Shown here: one piece after another, positions 33,391 through 50,148 of the stretch
Position numbering within the stretch: the first letter of the stretch is position 1
How the letters are laid out: the number at the start of each line of letters is the position of its first letter
Source of the DNA: Candidatus Poribacteria bacterium
GTDB taxonomy: Bacteria > Poribacteria > WGA-4E > PCPOR2b
DNA length: 64,000 bases
Assembly (NCBI GenBank): GCA_965208325.1
Contig: OZ242326.1
Coordinates: 854,725 to 918,724, forward strand
Reading direction: 5' to 3'
Notes under the pieces: model-generated
Told to the model about the DNA's origin: nothing
Seen by the model: only the letters and a program-made list of their open reading frames with translations
The model's database searches: none
Program-made: the position numbers and the translations under genes

Positions 33391-34284
33391 ATGAGATTTG
33401 TATCTTTCGCAACCGACGGCGGCTCACATTATGGTATTTTAAAAGATGACCGCGTCCTCGACTTAACAGTGGCGGGCGGCGCAGACCTTCCCAGCGACAT
33501 GCTCGGTTTAATTGACCTTGGGGCTTCCGGAATTGCACGTGCGCAGCAAGTGGCGGACCAGTCACCGGACTCGGCGTGGCAGCCGCTCGATTCATCCAAA
33601 TTGCTCGCGCCTATCCCGGTCCCCCGCCGCAACGTGTTCTGCATAGGCATGAACTACGCCGCCCACGCAGCCGAAGGCGCTTTGGCGAGGGGCGTAGAGC
33701 CTTCACTTCCCACAGTACCGGTTTTCTTCACAAAAACCACGACCGCGGTCACGGGACCATATTCGGATGTCCCGTTCGATGCCGCCGTATCCGATCAGAT
33801 TGACTGGGAAGTCGAATTGGCGGTCATCATCGGCGGGCGCGGGAAGAACATCTCGCCGGAATCGGCGATGGACTACGTCTTCGGGTATACCGTCGTCAAC
33901 GACCTCTCGGCTCGAGATTTACAATTCAGCCATAACCAGTTCTTTAAGGGCAAGAGCCTGGACGGCGCGTGTCCGATGGGACCGTGCATTGTGACCGCGG
34001 ACGAGATTTCAGACCCCCATGCACTCGACGTGCGCTGCACTGTCAACGGCGTCCTCAAGCAGGAGTCCAACACATCCGATCTCATCTTCGACATCCCGGC
34101 GACCATTGACTGGCTTTCGCGCGGGTTGACGATTCAACCGGGCGATGTCATCTCCACCGGCACCCCCAGCGGCGTCGGCTTCGCACGAACACCGCCGGAA
34201 TTCCTGTTCCCCGGCGATGTCGTCGAATGCGAAGTCGAGGAAATCGGAATTATAAAAAATCGGATGATTGATGTTGGTGGATGA
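33391..34284 (+). CDS. fumarylacetoacetate hydrolase (FAH) family protein (2-keto-4-pentenoate hydratase-like)
   Basis: 'FCIGMNYAAHAAE', 'DWEVELAVIIG', 'GYTVVNDLSARDLQ', metal-ligand pattern of the FAH family. 297 aa. Confidence 0.7.
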   Translation: MRFVSFATDGGSHYGILKDDRVLDLTVAGGADLPSDMLGLIDLGASGIARAQQVADQSPDSAWQPLDSSKLLAPIPVPRRNVFCIGMNYAAHAAEGALARGVEPSLPTVPVFFTKTTTAVTGPYSDVPFDAAVSDQIDWEVELAVIIGGRGKNISPESAMDYVFGYTVVNDLSARDLQFSHNQFFKGKSLDGACPMGPCIVTADEISDPHALDVRCTVNGVLKQESNTSDLIFDIPATIDWLSRGLTIQPGDVISTGTPSGVGFARTPPEFLFPGDVVECEVEEIGIIKNRMIDVGG

Positions 34285-34351
34285 ACATCTCCTCTCCCGA
34301 CTACTACATAATCAACATTAAATCTTTCATCACGCTAAGCGAATTCAGGTA

Positions 34352-37237
34352 TTGGCAATGAGGAAATCGGTCACACCCGTCCCCAATCCCCAGCAACAGA
34401 AGGCGATTCGGACAACAGAAGGGCCGCTGCTCATTATTGCTGGTCCTGGATCTGGAAAGACCTTTACGCTTGTTGAGCGTATCAATCTCTTAATTTCGCA
34501 AAAGGGAATTCCGCCGGAATCGCTCTTCGTCGCAACTTTTACTGAAAAAGCCGCGGCCGAACTGATCAGTCGAATCTCACTAAAATTGGATTCCGCCAAA
34601 ATCACCGCCAATCTGAACGAGATGTACATTGGCACCTTCCACTCCATCTGTCTTCGATTTCTTGAGGAACACCGTAGATTTACCCGCCTGGCGCGCAACT
34701 TCACCTTATTAGATCAATTCGATCAGCAGTATTTTCTTTATCAGCGCTTGTCTGACTATCAGGCGATTGAGGGAAGTGAGCATATTTTGGATAATCCAAG
34801 AGCTACATGGTGGGGTAAGGCGGAAAATCTTATGAAATGGGTGAACAAGGTGAGCGAGGAGGCGCTTGCCCCGGAAGATTTGCTTGATGCCGACGAGCCT
34901 GAAGTTCAAGCGCTTGGACGCTGTTATCAACAGTATCAGGCACATCTCGAAGCCGAAAACTGCCTTGATTTTTCCACGATTCAAGTTGAGGCGTTGCGTC
35001 TGCTCGACCAATACCCGGAGGTACTTGACGAGATTCGCACTAAGATTCAGTATTTGATGATCGATGAGTTTCAGGACACCAACACCGTTCAAGAAATCAT
35101 CCTGTTCAAACTTGCCGAACCGAACTACAATCTCTGCGTTGTAGGTGACGATGACCAAGGACTTTACCGATTTCGGGGCGCGACGATACGTAACATTCTC
35201 CAATTCCCGCAGCGGTTCCCGCCGGGAGATTGCCAGCAAGTCAAACTCACGACCAACTACCGATCGCACCCGGATGTCATCGGTTTTTACAACGATTGGA
35301 TGGATAGCCTTGATTGGTCCGAGGACGGCAAAACTTTCCGCTATGAGAAAACAATTGTTGAAAACTCGGAACGAGAATTCACGGAGGTGCCGGCCGTGCT
35401 GAAGGTCTCAGGTGAATTAGACTCTGAGAACTGGCACGAGGAAGTCCTTGCGTTCCTTCGCCACCTAAAAGGCAACGGTTCATTGACGGATTGGAATCAG
35501 GTCGCATTCCTTTTTCGATCGGTGCGGAATGAGAAAGTCGTTGCACTCGCAGGCGCGTTGGAGGAAAACGGAATTCCCGTCTATTCCCCGCGATCTAATC
35601 TGTTCTTCGACCGGGCAGAAATTCGCCTCATGATCGGCGCGTTAATTTTCCTCTTCCCCCAATTTGAAAATGTTCGGAAGTGGAATAAAGACGCTTCGCT
35701 TGATATCTGGAACTATTACGATGACGACTGTTTTCGGGATTTTGCTGACGAACTCCGCAAGCCAGACAATAAGTCTATGTTGGCGTGGTGCAGAAGGCGA
35801 GCAAAAGCGCATCTCCACCTGATAGAGTCGACAGACTATGCCTTCTCTGGGCTGTTCTACGAATTGTTGCAGTTTCCACTATTCAGTCAATACCTTGGCG
35901 AAGCTACGCAAGGCGGAGCAATAGACACCCGTCCTGCCCGAAACTTGGCAATTTTATCCCAACTCCTCAGCAAGTATGAGTATCTGCATCACATCAACGT
36001 CTTAACGCCTGATTATCTGAACACGAATCTACGCAGGTTGTTCAATCGTTATTTTCGATTCCTTAAAGAGGGTGGGATTGAAGAATTCGAGGATGCGTCT
36101 GATTATGCGCCAACAGGCTGCGTCTCCTTCATGACGATTCATCAGTCTAAAGGGTTGGAATTTCCGGTTGTATTAGTAGGCTCAATGGAAGCCAGACCTT
36201 ACAAGCAACACACGGACCTTGATGCTGTGCTCCAGCGGAATTACTATAGAAAGCCGCCGTTTGAACCATTGGAGAATACCAAAAGCTATGACTTCTGGCG
36301 ACTTTTTTACACGGCATTTTCCCGAGCACAAAATCTACTAATTCTCACCTGTCAGGAACGAAAGGGGCGGTGGCCTGCTCCATCTGGATATCTCAGCGAT
36401 TCCTACGCTCAAACCTGCGCATGGCGGGACCCCGCATTTCAATCACAAAACCTCACACTTGAAACAATCAGGGAAGTATCTCTAAAGCATGAGTATTCAT
36501 TCACGTCCCATATCACCCTATATGAGAACTGCGCGCGGCAATACAAATTCTACCGCGACCTCCAGTTTGCCCCAATTCGGCGGAACCCAATCCTCTTCGG
36601 GGTCGTGGTACATCAGACTATTGAGGACATCCACAAAGCCGTTCTACGAGGCGAAGAAAACAGTGTCACTGATGAACAAATTTCGCGCTGGTTCAACGCC
36701 AACTATACTCACCTGTCTCGTCAAGAACGCCTTTATTTAAGCGCGGGCGGCCAAAATGCCGCCTTGGAACACGTCCTGAGATATGCTCACCGTGAGCGCA
36801 GAACATGGGATCGCCTTCGCGAAACAGAGGTCAAGGTTTCCGTTGTGAAGGACACCTACTTTTTAACCGGACATGTGGACTTAATCCGCGGCGAAGACGA
36901 GTCAATGGAAATTGTGGATTTTAAGTCGGAACGTAAACCTGACCTATTTGGCGAACGCGAGACGTTAGACCGCTACCGGCGTCAACTCGAAGTCTATGCC
37001 CACATTGTAGAAGGACGCACCGGGCACAAGATTAGTAGAATGCACCTCTACTACACAGGAGAGGACAATAGTAATCCTTATGTCAGTTTTGACAAGAATC
37101 CGCGCTCAATTAATCGCACGATGGCAGCCTTTGACGATGTCGTTGAGCGTATCGAAGCAAAAAATTTCGAGATATCGGGACGTCCGGAGAAACTGTGCAA
37201 GAATTGTGACATGAAGGCATATTGTGATGCGATATAG
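34352..37237 (+). CDS. UvrD/PcrA-like SF1 helicase fused to C-terminal Cas4/AddB-like PD-(D/E)xK nuclease with Fe-S Cys cluster
   Basis: Helicase motifs 'QQQKAIRTTEGPLLIIAGPGSGKTF' (Q/I), 'VGDDDQGLYRFRGA', 'TTNYRS', 'TIHQSKGLEFPVVLV'. C-terminal nuclease with 'YENCARQYKF', 'VDLIRGEDESMEIVDFKSER', 'QLEVYAHIV' and terminal 'CKNCDMKAYCD' (four Cys). Confidence 0.7.
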   Translation: MAMRKSVTPVPNPQQQKAIRTTEGPLLIIAGPGSGKTFTLVERINLLISQKGIPPESLFVATFTEKAAAELISRISLKLDSAKITANLNEMYIGTFHSICLRFLEEHRRFTRLARNFTLLDQFDQQYFLYQRLSDYQAIEGSEHILDNPRATWWGKAENLMKWVNKVSEEALAPEDLLDADEPEVQALGRCYQQYQAHLEAENCLDFSTIQVEALRLLDQYPEVLDEIRTKIQYLMIDEFQDTNTVQEIILFKLAEPNYNLCVVGDDDQGLYRFRGATIRNILQFPQRFPPGDCQQVKLTTNYRSHPDVIGFYNDWMDSLDWSEDGKTFRYEKTIVENSEREFTEVPAVLKVSGELDSENWHEEVLAFLRHLKGNGSLTDWNQVAFLFRSVRNEKVVALAGALEENGIPVYSPRSNLFFDRAEIRLMIGALIFLFPQFENVRKWNKDASLDIWNYYDDDCFRDFADELRKPDNKSMLAWCRRRAKAHLHLIESTDYAFSGLFYELLQFPLFSQYLGEATQGGAIDTRPARNLAILSQLLSKYEYLHHINVLTPDYLNTNLRRLFNRYFRFLKEGGIEEFEDASDYAPTGCVSFMTIHQSKGLEFPVVLVGSMEARPYKQHTDLDAVLQRNYYRKPPFEPLENTKSYDFWRLFYTAFSRAQNLLILTCQERKGRWPAPSGYLSDSYAQTCAWRDPAFQSQNLTLETIREVSLKHEYSFTSHITLYENCARQYKFYRDLQFAPIRRNPILFGVVVHQTIEDIHKAVLRGEENSVTDEQISRWFNANYTHLSRQERLYLSAGGQNAALEHVLRYAHRERRTWDRLRETEVKVSVVKDTYFLTGHVDLIRGEDESMEIVDFKSERKPDLFGERETLDRYRRQLEVYAHIVEGRTGHKISRMHLYYTGEDNSNPYVSFDKNPRSINRTMAAFDDVVERIEAKNFEISGRPEKLCKNCDMKAYCDAI

Positions 37238-37277
37238 CAAGAGATTCAAATCGACGCAAGACGCAAGGAGAAGATTC

Positions 37278-39194
37278 ATGGAAACACAATCCCATCTCAA
37301 AATTTTAGAACCTATTAATTCTGTTGAATCATACGAATTTGAGCCTATTCAGGGTTACCCCATGCTCAACTGGAAAGGTAAACGCCCTTTCCGATCCACA
37401 CAATACTATCCAGCCCAACTTAAAGAGACGTATGGTGAGGAAGTAGAGGGTTGGCAAAACAAAATATACTGGGGCGATAACTTGCAGGTAATGAGCCATT
37501 TACTTAAAACCTTTCGGGGCAGGATAAACTTGATTTACATTGATCCCCCGTTTGATTCAAAGGCAGACTACAAGAAGCAAATAGAACTTAAGGGAAAGAA
37601 AGTTGAGAACGATAAAAGTGCATTTGAAGAGAAACAATACACTGACATTTGGACGAATGATGAGTATTTACAATTCATGTATGAGCGATTAATCTTGATG
37701 AAAGAATTGTTGGCAGATGATGGGACGATATATGTTCATTCTGACTGGCGAATGAATAGTTACCTTCAATTGGTTTTAAATGAGGTGTTTGGGAAGAGTA
37801 ATTTTCTTAACTTGATAACATGGCGACGGCAAATAGTCCGCGGGATGAAAAAATACGCACGATTCATGCCATTCAGTTCGGATTACATTTATCTCTATGC
37901 AAAAGACAAAAGCAAAGCGATTTGGAACAAAATCGAAAAAGTTAATGCTATCTCATTGAAAAAGGCCGAACAAAAATATAAGAAAGATGATAAAGGATTC
38001 TTCCGAACTTCCGACCGCGGGACATACTCGGACGAGAGCATCATTCAACTCTATAAGGAAGGACGAATTCATGTCACGCACGGTGGAAAATTCCAGATAA
38101 AGGAGGGCAAGGTGTCGGTATCAGCCGGCAAAATTGGCATCAAATATTACCGCGAAACAGTTGGTGATAAAGTCCTTGAAAAAACGGTTTTTGATAATCT
38201 ATGGGATGATATATCTGGATTGGGTATTACTCCCCACGAATATCTTGATTACCCAACCCAAAAACCCGAAGCACTGCTCGAACGTATAATCAAAGCCTCG
38301 TCCAATCCCACCGACATCGTCTTGGACTGCTTCATGGGCAGCGGCACGACGCAAGCGGTCGCTATGAAACTTGGCCGTCGCTTCATTGGGGCAGACATCA
38401 ACCTCGGTGCCGTGGAAACTGCGACAAAGCGTCTCCTGATTGTTGCAGCATCGCTAAAGGAAAAAACGGCACAAAGGCGAATTGAAGAAACCCTAATCCA
38501 CTTTTCGGGATTTGAAGTGTATAACGTCAACCACTATGATGTATTCCGAAATCCCGTTGAGGCGAAAGACCTGTTGATAGAGGCATTAGAGATACAACCT
38601 CTGCCAAACGGCGGTATTTTCGATGGCGAAAAGGACGGGCGCATGGTGAAAATCATGCCAATCAATCGAATTTCAACCCGAGCAGACCTCAACGAACTAA
38701 TCGCGGGATTTAACTACCAAACATTTGAAAGGCGTCAGGAAGAAAATCCAGATGCTCCGGTCGAAAAGCTATTACTGGTCTGCATGGGCCACGAACCTGG
38801 CCTCGCCGCAGCACTGCAAAACGAAGTACCTCACAAACTTGACATAGAAATAATGGATGTTTTGCGCGATAAATCCCGACTAGAGTTCAAGCGTGAATCC
38901 GAAGCGAAGATTGTTCGTAACAACGGATACCTAATCATAGAGCAATTCTACCCGATGAACCTTCTTCAAAAGTTGAGCCTGATAGAGGAAAACGTCGCTG
39001 ATTGGCGCGAACTGGTGGAATCTGTAAAGGTTGACTTCAACTACGACGGCGGGGTGATGAACCCATTAGTGGTCGATCTGGCGAAAGAACATCAACTAGT
39101 TGAGGGCACTTACCCCATTCCAGAAGACGCGGGCACAATCCGAGTTAAAATCACCGATTTGCTGTCAGAATCTTTGGAAAAGACAGTGGAATAG
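37278..39194 (+). CDS. mod: Type III restriction-modification DNA methyltransferase (Mod), beta-class N6-adenine/N4-cytosine MTase
   Basis: 'IYWGDNLQVMSHLL...INLIYIDPPF' (motif IV DPPF) N-terminal, AdoMet motif I 'DCFMGSGTTQAVAMKLGRRFIGADIN' C-terminal (beta order). Shine-Dalgarno 'AAGGAG' 9 nt upstream of the ATG at 37278. The ORF's nominal start at 37224 overlaps the helicase gene. Confidence 0.75.
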   Translation: METQSHLKILEPINSVESYEFEPIQGYPMLNWKGKRPFRSTQYYPAQLKETYGEEVEGWQNKIYWGDNLQVMSHLLKTFRGRINLIYIDPPFDSKADYKKQIELKGKKVENDKSAFEEKQYTDIWTNDEYLQFMYERLILMKELLADDGTIYVHSDWRMNSYLQLVLNEVFGKSNFLNLITWRRQIVRGMKKYARFMPFSSDYIYLYAKDKSKAIWNKIEKVNAISLKKAEQKYKKDDKGFFRTSDRGTYSDESIIQLYKEGRIHVTHGGKFQIKEGKVSVSAGKIGIKYYRETVGDKVLEKTVFDNLWDDISGLGITPHEYLDYPTQKPEALLERIIKASSNPTDIVLDCFMGSGTTQAVAMKLGRRFIGADINLGAVETATKRLLIVAASLKEKTAQRRIEETLIHFSGFEVYNVNHYDVFRNPVEAKDLLIEALEIQPLPNGGIFDGEKDGRMVKIMPINRISTRADLNELIAGFNYQTFERRQEENPDAPVEKLLLVCMGHEPGLAAALQNEVPHKLDIEIMDVLRDKSRLEFKRESEAKIVRNNGYLIIEQFYPMNLLQKLSLIEENVADWRELVESVKVDFNYDGGVMNPLVVDLAKEHQLVEGTYPIPEDAGTIRVKITDLLSESLEKTVE

Positions 39195-39212
39195 CGACTT
39201 ATAGGGGAAAAA

Positions 39213-41816
39213 ATGGCACGAATTGCGCGAACACAGATTAATCTCGATTTCGCCTTCTTCACCTACCTACGCATCTTTTATACTGAGAACCGCGGGCGAA
39301 TTCGCAATCACTTTCGAGATCTATCTAAAAAATTCCTAGATTTCAACACCCCTGAATCAGGGGCGTTTTTGCGCGAACCGCAGTTTGAGGCGTTAGAGAT
39401 GTACATTTTCCTTAAGGAATATCTAGGTAACCGACACGTTCACGAGATTTTCACTGACTGGTACACAAAACAAAACGGGTTTGAAGGGCGGTCAACTCTT
39501 GGTATCGAACAGCTTGAACTGCTTGGAGAACTCAATACGACGCAATACGAGGCTGTATTCCGCTATATTAGAAAATCTGGAAATCGAAATTATGCGAATT
39601 ATATTTTTGCGCTTCCAATGGGTACGGGCAAGACGATTCTCATGGCAACCTGTATCTTCTACGAGTTTCTGCTCGCCAATAAATTTCCGAAAGATCCAAA
39701 ATATTGTCGTAATGCCCTTGTCTTCGCACCCGATCGAACGGTGTTACAGTCTCTCAAAGAGATTCAGACCTTCGACATGACAAAAGTTATACCGCATGAA
39801 TACTTCAATTTCCTTTCACGCCACATCCAATTCCACTTCCTTGAAGAAGCCGGAACTACACTCTCTACAATGGACCGCTCGCAATTCAACATTATCATCT
39901 CCAATGCGCAGAAGATAATACTCAAAAAGCAACACACTGAGAAAAGTGCCAGTGAACGCTTGTTTAAGAGCGGAGCACCGACTTACAAACCGGGAAGCGT
40001 CTACGACCAATTTTCAGGTCTCTACAATTTTGACACGCCCGAAGATGAGAACGAATTAACAACCAATCAGCGATTTCAGAAACTGACAAGGCTTGAACAA
40101 CTCGCAATCTTTGTCGACGAGGCACATCATGCGTTCGGCAGTAAACTGGCAAGGGACATGGGGCTTCAGAAGTCAAAGACCAGTCTGCGGCTTACCATTG
40201 ATGAACTTGCGGCAAGTTTGGAGCGTGCGGGAACGCGCGTCTGCGCCTGCTACAATTTCACGGGTACACCATACGTCGGGCAACAGGTCTTACCCGAAGT
40301 AGTTTACGGGTACGGGTTAAAAGAAGCAATTGACAAAGGATTCTTGAAAAAAGTTAGGCTTCATACCTACACCAATCCTAAAGACTCGGAGTTTGTGCGA
40401 CTGACGATTAAGGATTTCTGGGACAATCATCGTGGATTACGACATGAAGGGATGTTGCCGAAACTCGCACTATTTTCATCCACAATCGACGAGTTAAAGA
40501 ACGATCTTCGCCCCGCTGTTGAATCGGCGTTAAGCGAGTTTGGTGTGCCGCTCTCTAGCATCCTTGTTAATGTGGGAGATTCAAAGCTGACATCCAACGA
40601 TGAACTCCGCGAGTTTATTAACCTTGACACCCAATCATCCGAAAAACAGTTTATCTTGTTAGTCAATAAAGGAAAAGAAGGATGGAACTGCCGATCGCTG
40701 TTTGGCGTGGCACTTTACCGGAGACCGAAATCCAAAATTTTTGTTCTACAAGCCAGTATGCGATGCTTACGGCAGATTGGCGAAGACCAGCAAACTGGAC
40801 ACATTTATCTTTCCGCAGAGAATGCTCAGATTCTTGATGACGAGTTGCAGCAAAACTTCCGCGTGTCCGTCAATGAAATTCATAACTTCGGTGTTGAAAA
40901 ATTAAATTATAAGGTACGAGTTAACAAACCGCCCGTGAACGTGACGCTCAAACGCATCAGAAAGTTGCACCAGCTGGTAGAAAAGCAATCCCAGAACGGG
41001 CTGTGTTTGGAGCTCGATCAGATAGACACAGAAAAGTATCGCTTAATACACGAAGAAAGTGAAGGGCTGGCGGCTCCTCACCCGATTCTAACGGAGGACC
41101 TATCCGAATACAAGTTAAAGCGAGATTTCAGTCAGTTGACGCTGTGTGCGGAAATTTCTCGCTACCTAAATCGATCTCCGCTGAAAATTGAGGAAATGCT
41201 GACGAATACAGAAGAAGGGATGCAAAGGATTCTGTCGAATGTCAATGAGTTTAATGAACTACTTTACGACTGGATAATTCCACGAATTTTTAAGGCATTA
41301 TATGATTTGCAGGAATTTGAAAATCACGAATCAGAAGAAATTGAATTGGTTAAGGAGCCCGAGGAGGGGTACTACACTGTTCGGGCGACGCCTAACCTTG
41401 TTTTTACAGATAACAACACTGAAGTAATACAGCACCGGCGAAAGAGTTTTCACTTGGACACCTACGCTTTTGACTCCAACCCTGAAAAGGCTTTATTTTG
41501 GTCACTGCTGCGGGCTGGAAAAGTTAAAAAAGTGTATTTCACAGGAATGCTGACGCATGGGCAATCAGATTTTTACATCCAATACATTGACCCAGAATCG
41601 CATGCAGTCAGGCGATATTATCCCGATTTCCTCATGCGGAAGGATGACGACTCATGGGTCATCGTCGAAGTAAAGGGTGACAATATGGTTGACGACCAGA
41701 TAGTTCAGGCAAAAGCTGCGGCTACCTATCAGCGAGCAAATGCAAGTCGCATGACATACAAAATCATTAAGGGCAGCGATGCTCAGGCGGGAAGATATAG
41801 TTCATTGTTGGAATAG
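39213..41816 (+). CDS. res: Type III restriction enzyme Res subunit (SF2 DEAH helicase plus C-terminal PD-(D/E)xK endonuclease)
   Basis: Walker A 'FALPMGTGKTILMA', DEAH 'IFVDEAHHAF', C-terminal nuclease 'YYPDFLMRKDDDSWVIVEVKGD'. 867 aa, immediately downstream of Mod. Confidence 0.7.
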   Translation: MARIARTQINLDFAFFTYLRIFYTENRGRIRNHFRDLSKKFLDFNTPESGAFLREPQFEALEMYIFLKEYLGNRHVHEIFTDWYTKQNGFEGRSTLGIEQLELLGELNTTQYEAVFRYIRKSGNRNYANYIFALPMGTGKTILMATCIFYEFLLANKFPKDPKYCRNALVFAPDRTVLQSLKEIQTFDMTKVIPHEYFNFLSRHIQFHFLEEAGTTLSTMDRSQFNIIISNAQKIILKKQHTEKSASERLFKSGAPTYKPGSVYDQFSGLYNFDTPEDENELTTNQRFQKLTRLEQLAIFVDEAHHAFGSKLARDMGLQKSKTSLRLTIDELAASLERAGTRVCACYNFTGTPYVGQQVLPEVVYGYGLKEAIDKGFLKKVRLHTYTNPKDSEFVRLTIKDFWDNHRGLRHEGMLPKLALFSSTIDELKNDLRPAVESALSEFGVPLSSILVNVGDSKLTSNDELREFINLDTQSSEKQFILLVNKGKEGWNCRSLFGVALYRRPKSKIFVLQASMRCLRQIGEDQQTGHIYLSAENAQILDDELQQNFRVSVNEIHNFGVEKLNYKVRVNKPPVNVTLKRIRKLHQLVEKQSQNGLCLELDQIDTEKYRLIHEESEGLAAPHPILTEDLSEYKLKRDFSQLTLCAEISRYLNRSPLKIEEMLTNTEEGMQRILSNVNEFNELLYDWIIPRIFKALYDLQEFENHESEEIELVKEPEEGYYTVRATPNLVFTDNNTEVIQHRRKSFHLDTYAFDSNPEKALFWSLLRAGKVKKVYFTGMLTHGQSDFYIQYIDPESHAVRRYYPDFLMRKDDDSWVIVEVKGDNMVDDQIVQAKAAATYQRANASRMTYKIIKGSDAQAGRYSSLLE

Positions 41817-41855
41817 GGCATAATCGCAAACATTAAGAGTTCGGGGTCGTTCTTT

Positions 41856-42698
41856 TTGGCAATGAGAAAGATCAAAACAGGACTACGCTGGCTCTGTGGG
41901 AAGGTCGGCAAACTTAGTTTTGAACACATACCCCCGGAAAAAGCATTCAACGACCAGAAAGTTTTCCATGACTGCGTTATCAACATCCTTGAAAACCAAA
42001 AGCTTAAAACATCTCAACGAGGTGTTGGGGACCATACGCTGTGTATTACCTGCAACAATAATACAGGTACAATGTATGGGTCTGCTTTTGTAGAATTTTG
42101 CAAACGTGCTGCTGACGTGCTGTCTCAGGCGTACGGTTATCCTACGCTGCATTACGAGTATAGTACCTACCCCTTGCGGGTCATTAAACAAATCGTAACG
42201 ATGTTCTTTTCGACCAATAGCCCAGAATGGCGGAAATCATGTCCTGATTTGGAGAAATTCGTATTGGATAAGCAGGATAGATACCTGCCTGAAAGATACG
42301 GCATCTTCCTCTATTACAATATTGAAGGTACGCTGCTGAAGCACACAGGCATACAACGTGTGCTTAAATTCGACCCCGACTGGATTGCTTCACCCAACCT
42401 GTCAGAATTCAGTGAAATCGTGCACCCTCCTTTCGGGTATTTGATGACAACAGACTCGGACAAACCAGATGATAGGCTGTTTGACATTTCTTGGTTCAGC
42501 AATTTCACCTTTGATGACTATCGGCGAGTGTATCTAAAAATTCCCGTGTTACCCATTTACACAATGTATGCGGGGCAATATCCGAGTCGAAAAGAAATAG
42601 ACGAAATTCGACGCAAAAATCCGGCACGAGGTCTCCAAGATTACCTTGAAGACATCGTGAGTCAGTCTGTCAACAGGAAAGGCGAACAATCCAAATAG
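41856..42698 (+). CDS. hypothetical protein with N-terminal HNH-like motif
   Basis: 'LCGKVGKLSFEHIPPEKAFND...HTLCITCNNNTG' resembles the HNH beta-beta-alpha-Me core (E-H, N, CxxC). The remaining roughly 200 aa are unassigned. Confidence 0.35.
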   Translation: MAMRKIKTGLRWLCGKVGKLSFEHIPPEKAFNDQKVFHDCVINILENQKLKTSQRGVGDHTLCITCNNNTGTMYGSAFVEFCKRAADVLSQAYGYPTLHYEYSTYPLRVIKQIVTMFFSTNSPEWRKSCPDLEKFVLDKQDRYLPERYGIFLYYNIEGTLLKHTGIQRVLKFDPDWIASPNLSEFSEIVHPPFGYLMTTDSDKPDDRLFDISWFSNFTFDDYRRVYLKIPVLPIYTMYAGQYPSRKEIDEIRRKNPARGLQDYLEDIVSQSVNRKGEQSK

Positions 42699-43049
42699 CA
42701 TTTTCTAAGCATTAATTACGAATTGCTAAGTAGAAAATATATGTATCAATTGGAGGTAATCTGTAAAATCCGTCAAATCTTGTAAACTATTGTAAACTTG
42801 AATGATGCGACAAATGCGCGAGAAAATCGCTACATACGCTTAAGCGATTGCGACCGGCGTTTGAAGCTGCGGCTGAAGGATACAGTAACCAACTTAAATT
42901 AAATAGTAAATGGATACGGTGACTCTCAACACCCGGCAACGCCATTCGATCGCTCGTTAATCCATTCATTTGGTTGTAGTTAAAGTCACTATTCCCACGC
43001 GTTCCCTTCATCTTAACGCCCGCTTTAATTTAGCAAGGGAGAATACGAT

Positions 43050-43496
43050 ATGACAAAGCGAATTTGGGTACTTCTTGGAGTTGGAATTATCGCTATTGTC
43101 TTCATATTAATTGCTGTATTTGCAGTTCGATCTTGCGGACAGCCCCCGGCCGAGACTCCGGTCCCCGACGATGATGCAACATCAGCCGCTCCTAAGCCCA
43201 CACGCGCGATAAAACCTGCGCCCGCGTATGTATCCGTTTCAATCAACGCCGTTCCGTGGGCAGAGGTTTTCATAAGGACTCCTGGAAGCGCTCGATTCGT
43301 AAAACCGGGGACTAAATACTTTAATATCAAGCCTCCTTCCAATGGAAAGGATGCCCACGTCACTCCGATTCGCGGAAAATTGAAAGTGCCGGCCGGCACA
43401 GCGATAAAGTTGGTGTATGATGGACGAGAGAAAATTTTCCCTTACGAGTCTTGGAAGACAAGGCGTTCAATCTCACACGATTTTCTGGGGCAATAA
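43050..43496 (+). CDS. hypothetical membrane-anchored protein
   Basis: N-terminal TM 'IWVLLGVGIIAIVFILIAVFAV', then a Pro/Ala-rich linker. 148 aa. Confidence 0.45.
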   Translation: MTKRIWVLLGVGIIAIVFILIAVFAVRSCGQPPAETPVPDDDATSAAPKPTRAIKPAPAYVSVSINAVPWAEVFIRTPGSARFVKPGTKYFNIKPPSNGKDAHVTPIRGKLKVPAGTAIKLVYDGREKIFPYESWKTRRSISHDFLGQ

Positions 43497-43542
43497 CCTA
43501 TCATTAAATAGAGTCGCTGGTAGATTTTTGGTGATACTTAAA

Positions 43543-45897
43543 ATGAGATTTTTCGTCATTTTTACGAAATTAATCCTTTTGACGGTCTGGAATTCGTCAG
43601 TCGCCATGGCCCTTACATCGGAAGAGATTGCCAAGAAAGCGTTGGACGCTACTGTACTTCTTGTCATGGTCGATGTCAATGGCAAGGTCGAATCACAAGG
43701 CAGCGGGTTTTTTGTACAATCAAATCGCATTGTGACCAATTTCCACGTTATTGATGGTTTCACTAGAGGCGACGCAAAACCTGTTGGTCGACAGACGGTG
43801 TACCCGATTGAGCATGTCTCGGCGGTGGACAGGAAGCACAATTTGGCAATTTTACAGGTGTCGGCACCCGGAATTGAACCACTTTCCATAGGGAACAGTG
43901 CGTCAGTTGCGGTTGAAGATCAGATTTATGTCGTGGGCAATCCATTAGGCGTCCTTGAGGGCACATTCTCTGAAGGGATTATCAGTGCGATCCGAGAAGT
44001 GGATTCGGTAAAGCTGTTTGAGGTTACTGCACCCATCTCTGAGGGTAACAGCGGCGGTCCAGTGCTAAACGCCCAAGGCGAAGTAATTGGAGTTTCACAC
44101 GGAGCGGTCCCTGCAGGGCGGAATCTAAATTTTGCGATCCCGTCAATCCACATTCAAGTGCTCGCCAACAAATTGGGCAAAGAACTGCTAGAAAAGGGTA
44201 TTCTGCAATATGAAGCTACCCAATTCAATGAGGCAATAAAATCATTGCGATTAGCCCTAACCGAGCTTAGCGATTCGAAACTGCGAGCCGTTGCCCACCT
44301 TTACCTTGGATGCTCAAAACGAGGATATGGAGAATCTGATTACCCCGTTAGCGCGGCGTTTGTAGAGGCGCTTCGACACAATCCTGAACAGATGTTGCCG
44401 CCTAGAATAGGAGAGGACCACCCGGTTTTTAAACCGATGCTCGAAAAAGTACGGTCTGAGTCAACTGGGAAATTGACGGTTAACTGCTCACTCCCCGAAA
44501 CTGAAATCTGGATTGACGGGGAGGTAATTGACAGGAAAATGATTGGCAGCGGCAATGCCGCCGTCCGACTATTTGTGGGCGGCTACACCGCGGAGGGGGT
44601 TTTTGAAGACGTGTACCGAAAGGCCTCATTCTCTATTGTACCTGATGGGCATGAGATTCTTTATCTAGATATGCCGCCCGTATTAAGGCATGAACCCCCA
44701 TCTAGAGTTTCCGTCGGTGAGGTTATCTCTCTTTCTTTGGATATAATTAGCCGCGATAAGGCGAAGCAGGTTCAGATCCACTACACCATCTTCGACAGAA
44801 ACGGGGAAGAATTGGTCCGGGGGATGCAGGACATGCTTTTGTGGAAGGAACAGCCCATACCGTCTACGTGGATTCACCGCTCGGATTTGCCATCGCAAAC
44901 CACCGTAGGAAGAATTTCATATTTCATCATGGCGGATGAAGGAAGGTCTCCTACTAGTCAGTTTCATGAAATCGCAATTGTTGACGAGAATCTCCCAATA
45001 ATTGACCTGCTAGAGCCCCCTGAAACTGCCGAATTCAGGGTCAACCAATCCATTTCGGTTAGAGCAAAAGTAACTGATAACACCGCTATTGATGAGGTTC
45101 GTATTCATTATGCTTTCTCGAGTTCAGGCAATTCAAGACCTTCCGAGACAATTCCGTCTGAACCACTGGTGAAGGAAACCTCTGGCGACGTATATGCCGG
45201 GTTAATCCCGCCGCAAAAGAGCGGTCCCGGCTACATCTGGTATTATCTGACCGCAATTGATGAAGAAAATAACCAGCGCCGCTCCGATTTCAGACGAATA
45301 AGTATAGTAAAAATTCCCGATGAGCGGCCCATGATGCCGGCGATAATTAAACGAAGCGCCCCGGTACGCCTCCCACATCAGAGTGTATGGGCAAGCCTCG
45401 GGTTGTGGAACGATATTCTCAAATTACATCGACCTGATGCTTTTTCGTGGGAAAGAGGAAATGTAATCAGTCTCGGTTACTTGAGTGAAGGCAGGGGCTA
45501 TCCGACACTTGGCGTAAAACTGGATTATTCGTATCAGATTCGCGAAAACATAAATGCGACAATAGAATTGGGGCCTGCAATTAGAAACGCTGCAATCACA
45601 GTAGCATTACTGGGCGGTGTTGCACGGTACAAAAAAATTTACGATGAATCGAATCCAATTACACCTTTTCTCGGTGCGAGTTTAAGGCTTTACCCAATGG
45701 ATACCGTCACAATTGACATCGCAAGTTCGATTAATCTTAGGTCGTTTGACACCACTTCCATACAATTCCAGCACTACGAAATGGGCCTGCGGATTTACCT
45801 AACGCCAACTCTGAACCTCAAGTTAAGTTACGGAAATTGGTACATAAGAGAGCACGGAAACAAAAGCGTTCAGATTGGACTGGGGATTAAATTCTGA
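43543..45897 (+). CDS. trypsin-like (S1) serine protease with large C-terminal region ending in a putative outer-membrane beta-barrel
   Basis: Signal peptide 'MRFFVIFTKLILLTVWNSSVAMA'. Protease motifs 'GSGFFVQSNRIVTNFHVIDG' (His), 'NLAILQVS' (Asp region), 'GNSGGPVLN' (Ser). C-terminal amphipathic beta strands ending '...QIGLGIKF' (terminal Phe). The ORF's upstream in-frame start at 43417 is rejected for lacking a signal peptide. Confidence 0.65.
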   Translation: MRFFVIFTKLILLTVWNSSVAMALTSEEIAKKALDATVLLVMVDVNGKVESQGSGFFVQSNRIVTNFHVIDGFTRGDAKPVGRQTVYPIEHVSAVDRKHNLAILQVSAPGIEPLSIGNSASVAVEDQIYVVGNPLGVLEGTFSEGIISAIREVDSVKLFEVTAPISEGNSGGPVLNAQGEVIGVSHGAVPAGRNLNFAIPSIHIQVLANKLGKELLEKGILQYEATQFNEAIKSLRLALTELSDSKLRAVAHLYLGCSKRGYGESDYPVSAAFVEALRHNPEQMLPPRIGEDHPVFKPMLEKVRSESTGKLTVNCSLPETEIWIDGEVIDRKMIGSGNAAVRLFVGGYTAEGVFEDVYRKASFSIVPDGHEILYLDMPPVLRHEPPSRVSVGEVISLSLDIISRDKAKQVQIHYTIFDRNGEELVRGMQDMLLWKEQPIPSTWIHRSDLPSQTTVGRISYFIMADEGRSPTSQFHEIAIVDENLPIIDLLEPPETAEFRVNQSISVRAKVTDNTAIDEVRIHYAFSSSGNSRPSETIPSEPLVKETSGDVYAGLIPPQKSGPGYIWYYLTAIDEENNQRRSDFRRISIVKIPDERPMMPAIIKRSAPVRLPHQSVWASLGLWNDILKLHRPDAFSWERGNVISLGYLSEGRGYPTLGVKLDYSYQIRENINATIELGPAIRNAAITVALLGGVARYKKIYDESNPITPFLGASLRLYPMDTVTIDIASSINLRSFDTTSIQFQHYEMGLRIYLTPTLNLKLSYGNWYIREHGNKSVQIGLGIKF

Positions 45898-46062
45898 GCG
45901 TTCATACCTTTATTGTGACTACACTTATTATCCCCCAAATATCAATCTAAACACGTGCACGACGACACCGATATTTTTCCAACTTTACATCATCGCATTT
46001 CTCGCCCTTAACGGCGGATGCAAAGACGCAAGATGTGTCTTGGGTTGGCAACTCTTTGAATA

Positions 46063-46551
46063 TTGGAGATTCATGTGCTTCAATCAACGTTCAACCAACG
46101 CCTAGCGTCGTGCATTATTGTTGCATTGTTGATTTTTTTGAACATAGGTTGCGCTACAATTACGCGGGGTAGTAAACAAGAGATATCAATATCTAGTGAA
46201 CCACCGGGAGCATCTGTAACCATCGATAATCAGCTTTATGGGGTAACCCCTACGGCGGTGCAACTTGCTCGTTCCAAACCCCATTCGGTGTTCCTTCAAC
46301 TTGAAGGTTACGAACCCGTTTTAATACAGATTCAGTCACAACCCGATGCTGCTGTCGCGGGAAACTGTCTGATGTGTTGTTGTTTGGGTGTACCTGGCAT
46401 TGTAGCCTTTGCAGTAGACATAATAACGGGTTCCGGTCGAACGTTAACGCCTGAAACAATTCACGTAGTTTTAATCCCCTTTGATGTTATTCTACCACCA
46501 GAAGTTGGGCAAAAATGGTATGTACGTCGTGCCTCTAGCGGCGAAAGATAG
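46063..46551 (+). CDS. PEGA-domain lipoprotein
   Basis: Lipobox 'FLNIGC'. PEGA motif 'ISSEPPGASVTIDNQLYGVTP'. Cys-rich hydrophobic C-terminus. Confidence 0.55.
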   Translation: MEIHVLQSTFNQRLASCIIVALLIFLNIGCATITRGSKQEISISSEPPGASVTIDNQLYGVTPTAVQLARSKPHSVFLQLEGYEPVLIQIQSQPDAAVAGNCLMCCCLGVPGIVAFAVDIITGSGRTLTPETIHVVLIPFDVILPPEVGQKWYVRRASSGER

Positions 46552-46831
46552 ATGGGAGTATAAGCACCAGTGTCCAATAGAGTATAGCGTTACGACGAAA
46601 ATTACGGTTCCGACATGTCCAACTACATAATCGGCTATTCAAATAAAAAACCTGACGAGCGGCAATTAAATTTTTAGATCGATTTCAAATGCCTACTCCA
46701 GTGAGGAATTTCTAAACTTTACGTCTGAATTGCCTCGCGAATTCTTTCAACATCAGCTTCAAACAAGAAGACTGAGACCCTGACATTCGAACTAAGTCAT
46801 TGGCGAGCCTAGTTAGGTATTGGACTGTATT

Positions 46832-47443
46832 CTAATAAAACACTACACCAATTGCAAAACTGTCAATTGCCCCGGTAAACGAAAAAGCATACGTACCCGA
46901 AATTATCAAAGATGGAGAAACCGTTAGTTCTAACCCCATCGCCGCATTTACGTGGCCTTCATCGATTTCCAACTCATCATTCAGAAACTCCCAGTTGTAA
47001 TTGTATCCCACACCGAAAAAAGGCGCAAATTCCATTGGGCTTGATTCGGATTTCAGTCGTTTTAATAGACCGGCATAGCCGCCTAAGCCAAGTCCATAGA
47101 TGTGTAGGTCACTGGCAAGGTTTTGATATGAGCCCCCTCCCCCAATCGTGACAAACGAATCGAATCCCGTAGTGCCAAACGGAGCGATGTGCATAAAGTC
47201 TAGTGAGGCTGCGGGAGAGGGCGGAACATCTAATTCATCGAAAAACCGAATCGCACCGGTAAACGATGCTTTTGCGTTTGCGTCAATGCCATATTCGAGA
47301 TTGGCCCAAATGGCACGATTCATTTCAGTAAAGGCTAATCCAAGTCCAAATGTGCTTTGTGTGGGCGCCAACCGTTTAAAGCTTGCAAAAGCGCTTGTGG
47401 CACACACATAAAAGCAAATTGCAATAATGAAGATTTTTTTCAT
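46832..47443 (-). CDS. small outer-membrane beta-barrel protein (OmpA-like / porin family 3 type)
   Basis: Signal peptide 'MKKIFIIAICFYVCATSAFA', alternating hydrophobic beta pattern, Gly/aromatic-rich, C-terminal '...GVVFY'. The start is taken at the internal ATG 47443. Confidence 0.5.
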   Translation of the reverse strand: MKKIFIIAICFYVCATSAFASFKRLAPTQSTFGLGLAFTEMNRAIWANLEYGIDANAKASFTGAIRFFDELDVPPSPAASLDFMHIAPFGTTGFDSFVTIGGGGSYQNLASDLHIYGLGLGGYAGLLKRLKSESSPMEFAPFFGVGYNYNWEFLNDELEIDEGHVNAAMGLELTVSPSLIISGTYAFSFTGAIDSFAIGVVFY

Positions 47444-47595
47444 GGTAACTGGGTTCTCCATAAAACCAAGTGAGTTGCTAGATTTTTCTAGAACTTCATG
47501 ATGTAATTTTGTTGTCCGCAGTTGTAATGATTGCGGAATGTCAGATAGCGGCACGTATCAGGCCATCCCATGTAATGCGGATTTGGGAAAAAGGG

Positions 47596-47925
47596 TTATT
47601 CACCGTATACCGTTATAGTATAGGTGGCCACAATTCCTAGAACACTCTGTGAGTGTTGCTCAACATGGTGGATCTTGGTGATACCACCATTCCTAGCCGC
47701 CGTTTGGATACTTGCATCCCCTATTGCGACCCATCCAAGAATGGATTGTGCGAATGCCGTTCCTGATTTGAGCGGTTTGACATTGTTATCTATACTTGAA
47801 GGAATTGGTGCCTTTACATCGGAGTATAGAAAACCCGTAACGGGTTGTTTAGCCTGTGCAGCACATCCTGTCAGATACATAACCAGCAATAACGGGATTG
47901 TAACAGTAACAACAAATTTTGACAT
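47596..47925 (-). CDS. TRL-like small lipoprotein
   Basis: Lipobox 'MYLTGC'. 109 aa. 'GFLYSDVKAP...GDASIQTAARNGGITKIHHVE' resembles the TRL-domain family. Confidence 0.4.
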   Translation of the reverse strand: MSKFVVTVTIPLLLVMYLTGCAAQAKQPVTGFLYSDVKAPIPSSIDNNVKPLKSGTAFAQSILGWVAIGDASIQTAARNGGITKIHHVEQHSQSVLGIVATYTITVYGE

Positions 47926-48550
47926 GGTAAACTCCTTTTAATTGAGCAAAATAAAATCATCACCTATAATCATAGCCGGCATCGCTGTCCTTTATCACTT
48001 AATGCCGAACTTGTAGCGGCTTTGACCCCGCCCCCAATCTCAGAAGACGGCTTTCGCGATGCCTAGCAATCGGAATCACTAAACCCATTTGGAATTTAGC
48101 AGCAAATAACAGACAGAAATCGATGAACGCGTATCGTTTGGCAAGGAAATGATTTGCGCCGTACATCGGCATTTCAATCTTAGATTGACGCTCTTGTTAT
48201 TCTTCATTAAGTAATGATTTATGATACCACAAGAAACCTTTCTCGGCAACGCCAAAAATCTGCGAACGCCGGTTGACGGATACTCCTGTCCTAGTATAAA
48301 ATCTTAAATTTTCACAAATTGTATTTTACCGCCACCACGCATTATATCCGATACTGTCAGTAACGCTTTTTTTAATGAGAAAACTCATAGTTGAGAATCT
48401 ACCGCCGGATGCCACATAGAAACTGAAAATCATGTAAACTTCTTTAAACTTTGTAAACTTGATCGAGAGAAAATTTCATCAAAATTTACGTCGCTACAAC
48501 TTGACATACTTCGAGGTTTTGTCGACATCTCTTTATAAGGTTGTGGCATT

Positions 48551-48916
48551 ATGTTAAGAATGATGCCGATAACCTTACCTGATAACCAATGGGAAAAAAT
48601 ATATGAGTTTCTTCTGGGTTGTTCCAACATCTTTGTCCGCAACGAAGCCGAAACCCGACGATTCGTCGAAGCTGTCCTGTGGGTGGCTCGCAGCGGTGCG
48701 CAATGGAGATTATTGCCTACTGCTTATGGCAAGTGGAACTCCATTTACAAGCGGTTTAGTAACTGGTGCGACATAGGAATCTTCGAACATATGCACCGCC
48801 ACTTTGCCTCCGACCCAGATATGGCGTCGCTTATTATTGACTCGACCATTTGCCGGGCTCACCCATGCGCACCTGGCGCCTCAAAAAAAACGGGGGTGCC
48901 GAAAACCAAGCGTTAG
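48551..48916 (+). CDS. IS5-family transposase OrfA
   Basis: 'MLRMMPITLPDNQWEKIYEFL...AQWRLLPTAYGKWNSIYKRFSNWCDIGIFE', a conserved IS5/IS427 OrfA. Confidence 0.75.
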   Translation: MLRMMPITLPDNQWEKIYEFLLGCSNIFVRNEAETRRFVEAVLWVARSGAQWRLLPTAYGKWNSIYKRFSNWCDIGIFEHMHRHFASDPDMASLIIDSTICRAHPCAPGASKKTGVPKTKR

Positions 48917-49230
48917 GACGTTCTCGCGGCGGCTTCAGCACCAAGATTCACATCACAGTTGACGCACTAGGTAATCCGCTTAGACTCCAGCTAACCCCCG
49001 GTCAGAGACACGACATAGCTGAAGCCGAATCGTTGATAGTTGGATATAACAGCCAGCATGTAATTGGAGACAAAGGATATGACTCAGTTGAATTTATCAC
49101 CGTTATTGAAGCCAATGGTGCCATTCCGGTGATACCACCACGACGTAATCGTGGTGCTCAAAGAACATTCGACCCCCATTTATACAAAGAGAGACATCTA
49201 GTCGAATGTTTCATCAAAAAAAAATACTAA
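48850..49230 (+). CDS. IS5-family transposase OrfB (DDE domain), expressed by frameshift from OrfA
   Basis: 'GFSTKIHITVDALGNPLRLQLTPGQRHD...VIGDKGYDS', a DDE transposase motif. Confidence 0.7.
   Translation: MPGSPMRTWRLKKNGGAENQALGRSRGGFSTKIHITVDALGNPLRLQLTPGQRHDIAEAESLIVGYNSQHVIGDKGYDSVEFITVIEANGAIPVIPPRRNRGAQRTFDPHLYKERHLVECFIKKKY
48883..48890 (+). promoter_or_regulatory. A8 slippery run - candidate programmed -1 frameshift site in IS5 transposase
   Basis: 'TCAAAAAAAACGGGGG' lies inside the OrfA/OrfB overlap. Confidence 0.5.
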
Positions 49231-49614
49231 TCCACGCCACATCACCAACAGCGATTCACCATCCGTGGCAACGCCGCATGATTATGTGCCCACGTAATCA
49301 TAGCCCATCGTTTAATCATACAAATCACAGTTCAGACAGTCTTCTCAATAACGCAACACTACACCCGCCGCGGCAACAATATGTAGGTTTCATTTTGTTT
49401 TTCGAGATTCCCACCGAGCGCCAAAGAATGCCCTGAATCAGAATCCAAAACAACACTGTCCCAAAATTTCCCCTTCATACCCACCTGCAACGGCACAAAC
49501 CCTTGCCCCGTCCGCATCCAAGCGATGGATTTTTCAACCCTTTCCGCCAAAAACCCCGATAACCTCGCACTCCGCCTTGACAATCGCTAAATCTCAAAGT
49601 ATACTACAATTATT

Positions 49615-50148
49615 ATGCCAACTACAAATGTCCAATTCGGCGAATCGGACATTGACTTCACCATTGAGCGTTTTGCTTATTATGGTGAGGGAAAAGCTAA
49701 TGCGAAGCGCGTAATTCGTGATGTATGTGATTATTTTGGGATTGAAGACAATGCTAGCAATCATAAATTATTATCCAATAAAATTCGTACCTTTAATCCC
49801 AACCGAAAAGACTGCGCAGAGCATTATCGGAGTCGCTATCTCATGAAACGAAATCAGGTTCTTACACACAGACACGAACCCAACGGCATTTTTTCACAAC
49901 AGCTACATGCACTTTTACTCGTTGCATTCAAAGTTCTGTCTGAAGAGATGACGCCGCCCCTCGCACTCAAGCTCATTGAAGCCGAAATCCGATTCGCAAT
50001 TGAAAACAAACACATAAATGTTCAGGAAAGAATTGAACGACAATGTTTAGCCGCCGACACGGGAGATAGTTCATTTCTAAATGGAAAGACGGAGCCGGAT
50101 TTACGGAAACCACAGTCGGTTTCTGAAAATCCATCGCGCATACCATAG
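49615..50148 (+). CDS. hypothetical protein; could be a frameshifted N-terminal part of the downstream terminase
   Basis: 177 aa with no recognisable motif. Overlaps the terminase ORF by 68 nt. Confidence 0.3.
   Translation: MPTTNVQFGESDIDFTIERFAYYGEGKANAKRVIRDVCDYFGIEDNASNHKLLSNKIRTFNPNRKDCAEHYRSRYLMKRNQVLTHRHEPNGIFSQQLHALLLVAFKVLSEEMTPPLALKLIEAEIRFAIENKHINVQERIERQCLAADTGDSSFLNGKTEPDLRKPQSVSENPSRIP

Follow-up and report, generated by a model that had tools for sequence, protein, structure and literature searches.

The gene at positions 34358-37237 of a 64,000-nucleotide stretch of DNA from a Candidatus Poribacteria bacterium (GenBank assembly GCA_965208325.1, contig OZ242326.1, positions 854,725 to 918,724 of the forward strand; hereafter the window) encodes a 959-amino-acid protein that joins a UvrD-type helicase to a Cas4-like nuclease. 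This open reading frame (ORF) almost certainly belongs to the published UvrD-Cas4-like fusion family and most likely leads a horizontally mobile operon of three genes, which encode the helicase-nuclease (Hel), a type III-like DNA methyltransferase (Mod) and a Res-like superfamily 2 (SF2) helicase/PD-ExK endonuclease (Res). The best overall explanation, to which we give a probability of about 0.55, is that a member of a known family heads a mobile Hel-Mod-Res operon and acts as a degrader of DNA ends. The window gene is a further copy of a described family in a described context and is already known: the fusion and its Mod/Res neighbourhood were published in 2017 (PMC5704561) and ZomB, a protein with the same types of domain, has been purified (PMC9453066), so the novelty implied by an earlier note on this DNA, which was made from the letters alone, fails.

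Helicase-nuclease gene and protein

The features of the gene are listed below; residue numbers count from the methionine at 34358.

34358-37237, + strand: UvrD-Cas4-like helicase-nuclease gene, 959 aa; ATG at 34358, alternative start TTG at 34352, stop TAG at 37235-37237 (ORF list, translation and Pfam).
34391-36361, + strand: superfamily 1A (SF1A; UvrD/PcrA-type) helicase region, aa 12-668, with motifs I, Ia, II, III, IV, V and VI (Pfam, PDB and motif conservation).
36470-37234, + strand: Cas4/AddB-type PD-(D/E)XK nuclease domain, aa 705-959 (Pfam, profile comparison with the PDB, AlphaFold2 (AF2) and Foldseek).
36530-36532, + strand: codon of C725, the first predicted iron-sulfur (Fe-S) ligand (YENCARQY), a cysteine in 86/87 sequences that aligns with the 'CPRR' cysteine of Cas4 SSO0001.
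36878-36925, + strand: nuclease catalytic core D841...D854-F-K856 (GHVDLI...IVDFKSER), aligned to the D...ExK...QLxxY of Cas4 and AddA.
36983-36997, + strand: QhxxY motif of the nuclease (Q876/Y880), 3' of the catalytic core.
37196-37225, + strand: C947-x2-C950-x5-C956, the three C-terminal predicted Fe-S ligands, invariant in alignment A2 and present in 86/87, 85/87 and 84/87 sequences, respectively.

Pfam assigns UvrD-helicase to aa 12-290 (E = 4.8e-75) and UvrD_C to aa 569-668, followed by PDDEXK_1 (PF12705) at aa 719-959 (E = 2.6e-22, 80.4 bits against a cut-off of 22) and Cas_Cas4 at aa 825-958 (E = 2.4e-5, 24.9 bits against a cut-off of 22.7). The closest solved helicases in the PDB are PcrA (1pjr, E = 3.9e-54) and UvrD. 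Helicase motifs are found as AGPGSGKT (28-35), IDEFQDTN (235-242), VVGDDDQGLYRFRGA (261-275), TNYRS (299-303), IHQSKGLEFP (594-603) and FSRAQ (654-658), and nuclease motifs as YENCARQY (722-729), GHVDLI (838-843), IVDFKSER (852-859), RRQLEVYA (874-881) and CKNCDMKAYCD (947-957). The earlier note had placed a UvrD motor with all SF1 motifs and a Cas4-type four-cysteine nuclease, including 'CKNCDMKAYCD' and 'DFKSER', in one chain, and the Pfam assignments, the location and conservation of the motifs, and the profile and fold matches given below bear this out. The public databases contain a 959-aa protein (P0001) that is 100% identical to the window helicase-nuclease.

A HMMER scan with the C-terminal half of the protein (aa 429-959) against 1.84 billion cluster representatives returned 2,496 clusters at E ≤ 1e-3 and 256 at E ≤ 1e-30, with full-length members mostly ~950-1,000 aa long. 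Residue conservation was counted out of 87 sequences in an alignment with 86 full-length cluster representatives (28-56% identity). In the helicase, the counts were 84 for K34, 86 for D236/E237, 86 for Q267, 84 for R271, 85 for R302, 82 for Q596, 86 for G599 and 86 for R656, and the motifs are at least 94% conserved. In the nuclease, they were 86 for C725, 82 for H752, 87 for D841, 81 for D854, 80 for K856, 84 for Q876 and 81 for Y880, with 86, 85 and 84 for the C-terminal cysteines C947, C950 and C956; key nuclease residues are ≥92% conserved except E756 (84%). As judged from this alignment, residue conservation in the helicase-nuclease is far beyond chance.

Compared with the PDB as a profile (A2), the nuclease domain matched Cas4 SSO0001 best (4ic1, E = 2.6e-5), with the first cysteine pairing with the 'CPRR' cysteine and the D...DxK...QLxxY block pairing too; further matches were the AddA nuclease, MGME1, Cas4 Pcal_0546, Cas4-Cas1, AdnB and AdnA. 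Searched alone as a single sequence, the domain gave one marginal match, to Cas4-Cas1 (E = 0.82). Alignment to Cas4, AddB and Dna2 had been put forward in the earlier note as a check, which missing nuclease residues would fail; the D/K and cysteine ligands are present and conserved, so no key residue is missing. Structure prediction, also proposed there, placed the nuclease domain closest to ACE1, AdnA and Cas4. The AF2 model, built from a diverse alignment, has a predicted local distance difference test score (pLDDT) of 91 and a predicted template modelling score (pTM) of 0.88, and its top Foldseek match is the Fe-S nuclease ACE1 (9iac/9iab, E = 6e-8, template modelling score (TM) 0.64), followed by the AdnA nuclease domain (9np6_A, 7sjr_A, 6ppr_A) and then by AddA, Cas4 SSO0001, RecE, AddB, MGME1 and Exo5. 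Cas4-Cas1 structures are also among the structural matches of the model. By sequence, the domain is a predicted nuclease of the Cas4/AdnA type, with four conserved cysteines spaced as the Fe-S-binding cysteines of Cas4, AddB, AdnA and ACE1.

A conserved Hel-Mod-Res operon

Two further genes of the operon follow the helicase-nuclease on the same strand.

37265-37270, + strand: AAGGAG Shine-Dalgarno-like element read from the sequence, 7 nt 5' of the probable Mod ATG at 37278.
37278-39194, + strand: type III-like Mod DNA methyltransferase, 638 aa from the ATG at 37278; the longest ORF starts at GTG 37224.
39213-41816, + strand: divergent Res-like protein, 867 aa, SF2 helicase plus C-terminal PD-ExK endonuclease.

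Genomes were scanned at one genome per species with two peptide patterns taken from the close alignment A1, and 350 genomes with a relative were found. The best 80 of the 350 are 57-76% identical to the window protein and, because alignment A1 was used, these loci are skewed to relatives of ≥57% identity. The top matches among these 80 (69-76%) are Candidatus Poribacteria metagenome-assembled genomes, and the rest (57-63%) are from the Cyanobacteria, Acidobacteriota, Chloroflexota, Alpha-, Beta- and Gammaproteobacteria, Bacillaceae, Desulfobacterota and Myxococcota. The window Mod and Res-like proteins were then searched by tblastn in 85 loci, 75 of which have ≥5.2 kb downstream. All three genes lie on one strand in the order Hel-Mod-Res in 71/75 loci (95%), spanning about ten bacterial lineages, and the Mod match begins a median of 58 nt beyond the end of the Hel match. 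Loci reached via Res-like homologues have Hel and Mod upstream in 3/3 cases, and the identities of Hel and Res to their window counterparts correlate (r = 0.95). A homologue and neighbourhood search had been recommended in the earlier note, which treated the protein as partnerless; the family proves widespread and its order Hel-Mod-Res is largely kept, and the gene in fact stands first in a conserved operon, ahead of those for a type III-like Mod and a Res-like helicase-endonuclease.

EcoP15I Mod is a clear relative of the window Mod (PDB 4zcf_A, E = 6e-19), which matches Pfam N6_N4_Mtase (1.5e-47) and the PADLOC MTase_III models and in which DPPF (89-92) precedes FMGSGTT (352-358), that is, motif IV comes before motif I. 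The third gene has the domain order of a type III Res, an SF2 helicase then a PD-ExK endonuclease, with the motifs MGTGKT (136-141), VDEAHH (301-306), YYPDF (802-806) and VEVKG (818-822). Residues G137/G139/K140/T141, D302-H306 and D805/E819/K821 are invariant in 18 Res-like homologues. Family matches are low: Pfam ResIII at 3e-9 (37.5 bits) and Tn7_TnsA-like_N at 3.4e-5, a weak PADLOC REase_III match (E = 2.6e-4), and 78.6 bits to the NCBIfam 'BPTD_3080 family restriction endonuclease' against an 800-bit cut-off. Searched against the PDB both as a single sequence and as an 18-member profile, the protein gave no meaningful match; its divergence from characterised Res proteins is such that even a profile does not reach the solved Res structures. 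Homologues in PLSDB carry the RefSeq name 'TnsA endonuclease N-terminal domain-containing protein'. On these sequence features, the protein is a predicted endonuclease with the layout of type III Res but very divergent. The operon as a whole resembles EcoP15I-like type III restriction-modification in its Mod and in the layout of its Res and is unlike it in that an extra helicase-nuclease gene stands at the head.

The intergenic gaps in the window are 40 nt (Hel-Mod) and 18 nt (Mod-Res), with a purine-rich element before each start. Homologues of Mod mostly align from residue 15-35 of the longest Mod ORF, and because of these alignment starts and the AAGGAG at 37265-37270 we place the Mod start at ATG 37278, 40 nt past the Hel stop. 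The earlier note mentioned the downstream gene only as overlapping the stop; this overlap exists only with the longest ORF (GTG 37224) and is probably an artefact of choosing that ORF; an overlapping, translationally coupled Hel stop and Mod start was accordingly rejected for the window in favour of ATG 37278. At other loci, annotated coding sequences are near-abutting or overlapping (L086) or separated by gaps of 2-3 nt (L087), and in ten loci other than L001, L002 and L092 the first Mod match lies >200 nt past the Hel match (387 nt to 5.3 kb, the largest in L017).

Several variants of the module were observed. Two N6_N4 methyltransferase genes lie between Hel and the Res-like gene in three loci (L001, 12926-16473; L002, 12935-16453; L092, 4441-7991), sometimes with a small ORF of no assigned family between the pair. 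In one Poribacteria-like genome (L090, 3304-6184), a 691-aa helicase and a 287-aa Cas4-like nuclease are called as two overlapping ORFs 5' of Mod and Res. Either a frameshift or pseudogene accounts for this, or the split is natural, as in the unfused pairs that PMC5704561 mentions. About one-fifth of the closest homologues are 1,100-1,250 aa long (P0111, P0045, P0089; L004, 10001-13756; L092, 942-4409) and have an extra ~150-aa N-terminal domain with a conserved 'SWADD...GVYI(I/L)WYFDESHAPQTVRVG'; this domain connects to the helicase through a low-complexity linker that contains repeats and is rich in Q, E, A and R. The extension has no Pfam match, and the long form occurs both alone (L004) and with Mod and Res (L092). 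In L092, a second, shorter UvrD-like gene (10749-12656, 635 aa) follows the Res-like gene.

Mobility and genomic setting of the module

The identity of ~60% across phyla indicates horizontal transfer, and the module is carried on plasmids. The conjugative plasmid p1 of Nitrosomonas eutropha C91 carries it, with recombinase and transposase genes, between two partial TrbG/VirB9-family genes inside the transfer-gene region; it is also present on the Enterococcus conjugative plasmid pEC369 (45% identity) and a non-mobilizable Bacillus cereus plasmid (41% identity), and the copy on an archaeal plasmid (L088, 28% identity) stands alone. Among 50,697 phage records, one has the nuclease domain: Acutalibacteraceae phage NatCom_11578 (L093), from the gut, encodes the whole module at one end of its genome record (5895-14048), as the helicase, a 246-aa ORF, a methyltransferase and an 872-aa Res-like protein. 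Flanking genes vary between loci. In L005 (17557-19121), a CD-NTase and a Cap15-like effector (CBASS) lie directly downstream of the module, and in the B. cereus plasmid (L089, 1177-4496) SIR2 and DUF2326 genes lie upstream.

In the window, the start of the helicase-nuclease gene coincides exactly with a fall in guanine-cytosine (GC) content from 0.60 to 0.46, and a lower-GC stretch lies within 34200-50000 (~0.39-0.50, against 0.51-0.60 outside). At its far end is the remnant of an IS4/IS5-family insertion sequence (IS) transposase (48551-49230, + strand), split into two overlapping ORFs (DUF4096, then DDE_Tnp_1). The stretch from the helicase-nuclease to the IS element suggests an acquired island of ~15 kb. 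A repeat search of 33.8-50.5 kb returned short chance-level matches only, with no flanking repeats.

Comparison with known systems

The fusion architecture was described by Hudaiberdiev et al. (2017, BMC Evol Biol), in whose analysis the UvrD-Cas4-like fusion is the largest pfam12705 branch (PMC5704561, section 8, Fig. 6), with monophyletic helicase parts. It was reported from many bacteria, sometimes stand-alone, with unfused pairs mentioned too; its commonest neighbourhood is type III Mod plus Res, and it was predicted to be ancillary in defence, with a suggested role analogous to that of RecB/AddB in recombination (PMC5704561). The window protein has the same fusion architecture, Mod and Res-like neighbours, spread and stand-alone copies, and nothing substantive differs; its presumed place in the published monophyletic clade is based on identical architecture and context. 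ZomB, from ICESp23FST81 of Streptococcus pneumoniae, is a single chain with UvrD-like helicase and Cas4-like domains and a predicted 4Fe-4S cluster; the purified protein has an ATPase activity stimulated by single-stranded DNA (ssDNA) and degrades linear duplex DNA only with ATP (PMC9453066). The window protein is like ZomB, by description, in its domain types and its carriage on mobile elements, and unlike it in that ZomB is described with two Cas4-like domains and is tied to pneumolysin regulation; the main text of the ZomB paper mentions no methyltransferase (PMC9453066).

The nuclease shares the C...CX2CX5C ligands and the D...DxK...QxxxY motifs of Cas4, SSO0001, Pcal_0546 and ACE1, and its best matches are in the Cas4 family both by sequence profile (4ic1) and by fold (9iac/9iab). 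Solo Cas4-family nucleases are ~200-280 aa long and work with Cas1/Cas2 or Argonaute, whereas the window domain is fused to a motor beside Mod and Res and scores 41.8 bits with TIGR00372 (Cas4 equivalog) against a cut-off of 65. No cas gene was found among the scanned window ORFs, CRISPR arrays not having been specifically searched for. Like Gabija GajB, the protein has a UvrD-type SF1 helicase in a defence context, and the PADLOC models for GajB and for the 'RTasHel' of defence-associated reverse transcriptase (DRT) systems match its N-terminal motor. Membership of Gabija or DRT was rejected, as these matches cover the shared helicase core only and the defining partners are missing: no GajA (OLD/TOPRIM)-like ORF lies near the helicase-nuclease. 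GajB is not known to have a fused Fe-S nuclease.

Like AddAB, AdnAB and RecBCD, the protein combines a UvrD-type SF1A motor with a RecB-family nuclease at the C-terminal end, and its nuclease fold and four-cysteine set resemble the fold and 'iron staple' of AddB and AdnA. Those enzymes are heterodimers or heterotrimers with the Fe-S nuclease off the main translocating subunit, whereas here one chain carries both, with no second subunit nearby and no Chi-recognition subunit; its scores are far below the equivalog cut-offs of the established families (addA_Gpos, 171 bits against a cut-off of 708; recB, 110 against 696). The contrast drawn in the earlier note with AddAB, in which the Fe-S nuclease and the active motor are on separate subunits, is fair and extends to AdnAB, where the Fe-S cluster is in AdnA and AdnB hydrolyses ATP to drive translocation (PMC8789073). 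A scan of 35 ORFs ≥200 aa and several shorter ones found no AddB-, RecC- or RecD-like ORF in the 64-kb window. The window contains no N bases and hence no assembly gap that could hide a partner gene, which answers the concern that an addB-like gene might lie beyond an assembly break. The earlier statement that no partner subunit lies nearby thus stands for an AddB/RecC-like subunit across 64 kb, and does not stand for partners in general, as the Mod and Res-like genes follow in a conserved operon.

In AdnA and ACE1, ssDNA threads a narrow channel to a D-DxK site, and the channel excludes duplex DNA (PMC12094033). In fold, the helicase-nuclease comes closest to AdnA and AddB, Fe-S nucleases that cut the displaced 5' strand, and in domain order to RecB, AddA and AdnB, whose cuts fall on the tracked 3' strand; its own target may be either strand. 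A dimer of the helicase-nuclease would permit degradation of both strands, and the duplex degradation by ZomB is compatible with such an arrangement.

Possible roles of the helicase-nuclease

A type III enzyme makes a single cut in unmethylated DNA once ATP has triggered sliding between two sites in inverse orientation, and restricted DNA is usually finished off by RecBCD or AddAB, which are inhibited by many phages. SF1A motors move 3'->5'. In the scheme that we favour, Mod would mark host DNA and Res would cut incoming unmethylated DNA; the helicase-nuclease would then load onto the Res-made ends, move 3'->5' on one strand with ATP and thread the single strand that it unwinds through its narrow Fe-S nuclease channel, degrading it processively. 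It would be a system-encoded, single-chain counterpart of RecBCD, AddAB and AdnAB, and restriction would become irreversible and independent of a host end-processing enzyme. A functional partnership of the helicase-nuclease with Mod and Res in defence is probable, and post-cleavage end degradation as its specific task is a tentative assignment. That Hel-Mod-Res forms a distinct restriction class, with the Fe-S helicase-nuclease as an integral third component coupled physically or kinetically to the divergent Res, destroying cut DNA unaided by RecBCD or AddAB and thereby resisting phage inhibitors of RecBCD, is doubtful.

Several points weigh against end degradation on behalf of Mod and Res. 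The helicase-nuclease also occurs alone, in L004, L012, L027 and the archaeal plasmid, and beside Dcm/Vsr as a second context (PMC5704561), so the family is not strictly dependent on Mod and Res. The PD-ExK residues of the Res-like protein are themselves invariant, so the module has no obvious need of a second nuclease. ZomB, the only biochemically studied protein of these domain types, is tied to gene regulation and not to defence (PMC9453066), and a search of one literature collection found no experiment linking a UvrD-Cas4 fusion to restriction or to a type III-like module. The full-length AF2 model, from 33 close homologues (71-85% identity), is poor (pLDDT 56, pTM 0.37), and the geometry of motor and nuclease is therefore not judged from it; Fe-S binding, helicase polarity and physical contact with Mod and Res are things that we only infer.

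There are four rival explanations. The helicase-nuclease might be an obligatory third subunit or the main effector of a distinct multi-motor restriction system, with Mod and the Res-like protein recognising unmethylated DNA and translocating on it and the UvrD-Cas4 protein physically bound as an effector that is required and not optional. The near-obligate linkage in both directions (71/75 loci, and 3/3 via Res), the co-variation of Hel and Res identities (r = 0.95), the fixed gene order and close spacing, and a Res-like protein so divergent that its family profile finds no solved relative (PADLOC REase_III, E = 2.6e-4) would all suit such a complex. We nonetheless consider it improbable, as the Res-like protein has what a self-sufficient Res would be expected to have, namely all SF2 motifs and a PD-ExK triad that is invariant, and the helicase-nuclease is also found alone and with Dcm/Vsr (PMC5704561). 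The same linkage statistics argue strongly against coincidental placement and thus against a housekeeping enzyme, a single-chain repairer of double-strand breaks whose restriction neighbours are accidental. The public annotation is simply 'ATP-dependent DNA helicase' and some close homologues lie among metabolic genes without Mod or Res (for example, L004), yet the 95% co-occurrence with Mod and Res across phyla, the ~60% identity between distant phyla that indicates horizontal transfer, the carriage on plasmids and one phage, and the local GC drop and nearby IS element make this explanation very unlikely.

A role in self-protection or repair would have the helicase-nuclease process Res breaks in under-methylated host DNA, such as may follow arrival on a plasmid, for RecA-dependent repair or for restriction alleviation. 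Its architecture parallels the AddAB, AdnAB and RecBCD resection enzymes, plasmids and transposon-like insertions carry the module between hosts, to which a newly arrived Res is dangerous, and the 2017 authors suggested a RecB/AddB-like part in recombination (PMC5704561). Most bacteria, however, already have RecBCD or AddAB (also PMC5704561), the protein has neither a Chi-recognition module nor a second subunit, and a repair task would leave unexplained why the gene order is so strict, with Hel leading the operon; the chance that repair is its task seems low. Finally, the protein could be a DNA-binding regulator similar to ZomB, which affects ply transcription (PMC9453066), or could supply prespacers for CRISPR adaptation in the manner of Cas4 or RecBCD, given that Cas4-family nucleases trim prespacers and that Cas4-Cas1 is among its structural matches. 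With no cas gene among the scanned window ORFs, and with Mod and Res rather than Cas proteins or regulators as conserved partners, both of these are highly improbable.

As a discovery, the window gene matters little, as the architecture and neighbourhood are published and the databases contain thousands of homologues. There is a genuine question, though not a novel one, as to why a type III-like module so widespread and mobile should encode a UvrD/Fe-S nuclease of its own. If the helicase-nuclease is an end-degrader, it would explain irreversible restriction where RecBCD or AddAB is absent or inhibited, provide a compact single-chain model of an SF1A motor coupled to an Fe-S nuclease, and justify a Hel-Mod-Res subtype in defence annotation tools; PADLOC currently matches the first gene via generic GajB and DRT helicase models only.

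Other genes in the window

Two ORFs lie between the Res-like gene and the IS element, at 41856-42698 and 43417-45897 (both + strand); neither is conserved alongside the module at any of the 85 loci. The first, directly after the Res-like gene, encodes 280 aa with no significant family match and with 'FEHIPPEKAF' and 'CITCNNNTG' motifs reminiscent of an HNH-type nuclease. The second encodes 826 aa, beginning with a trypsin-like serine protease domain (Trypsin_2, 3e-28); its long C-terminal part gives faint Ig-like and beta-barrel signals, and the PADLOC 'RT-Protease' and LmuA models match the protease part only. Upstream of the module and unrelated to it, positions 16869-20204 (- strand) encode a 1,111-aa protein with an adenylate/guanylate cyclase, an AAA_16 (STAND-type) ATPase and TPR domains. 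Just past the IS element, positions 50081-51895 (+ strand) encode 604 aa with a sub-threshold DEAD-box helicase match (E = 1.5e-4, 22 bits against 26), and a 177-aa ORF lies 5' of it at 49615-50148.

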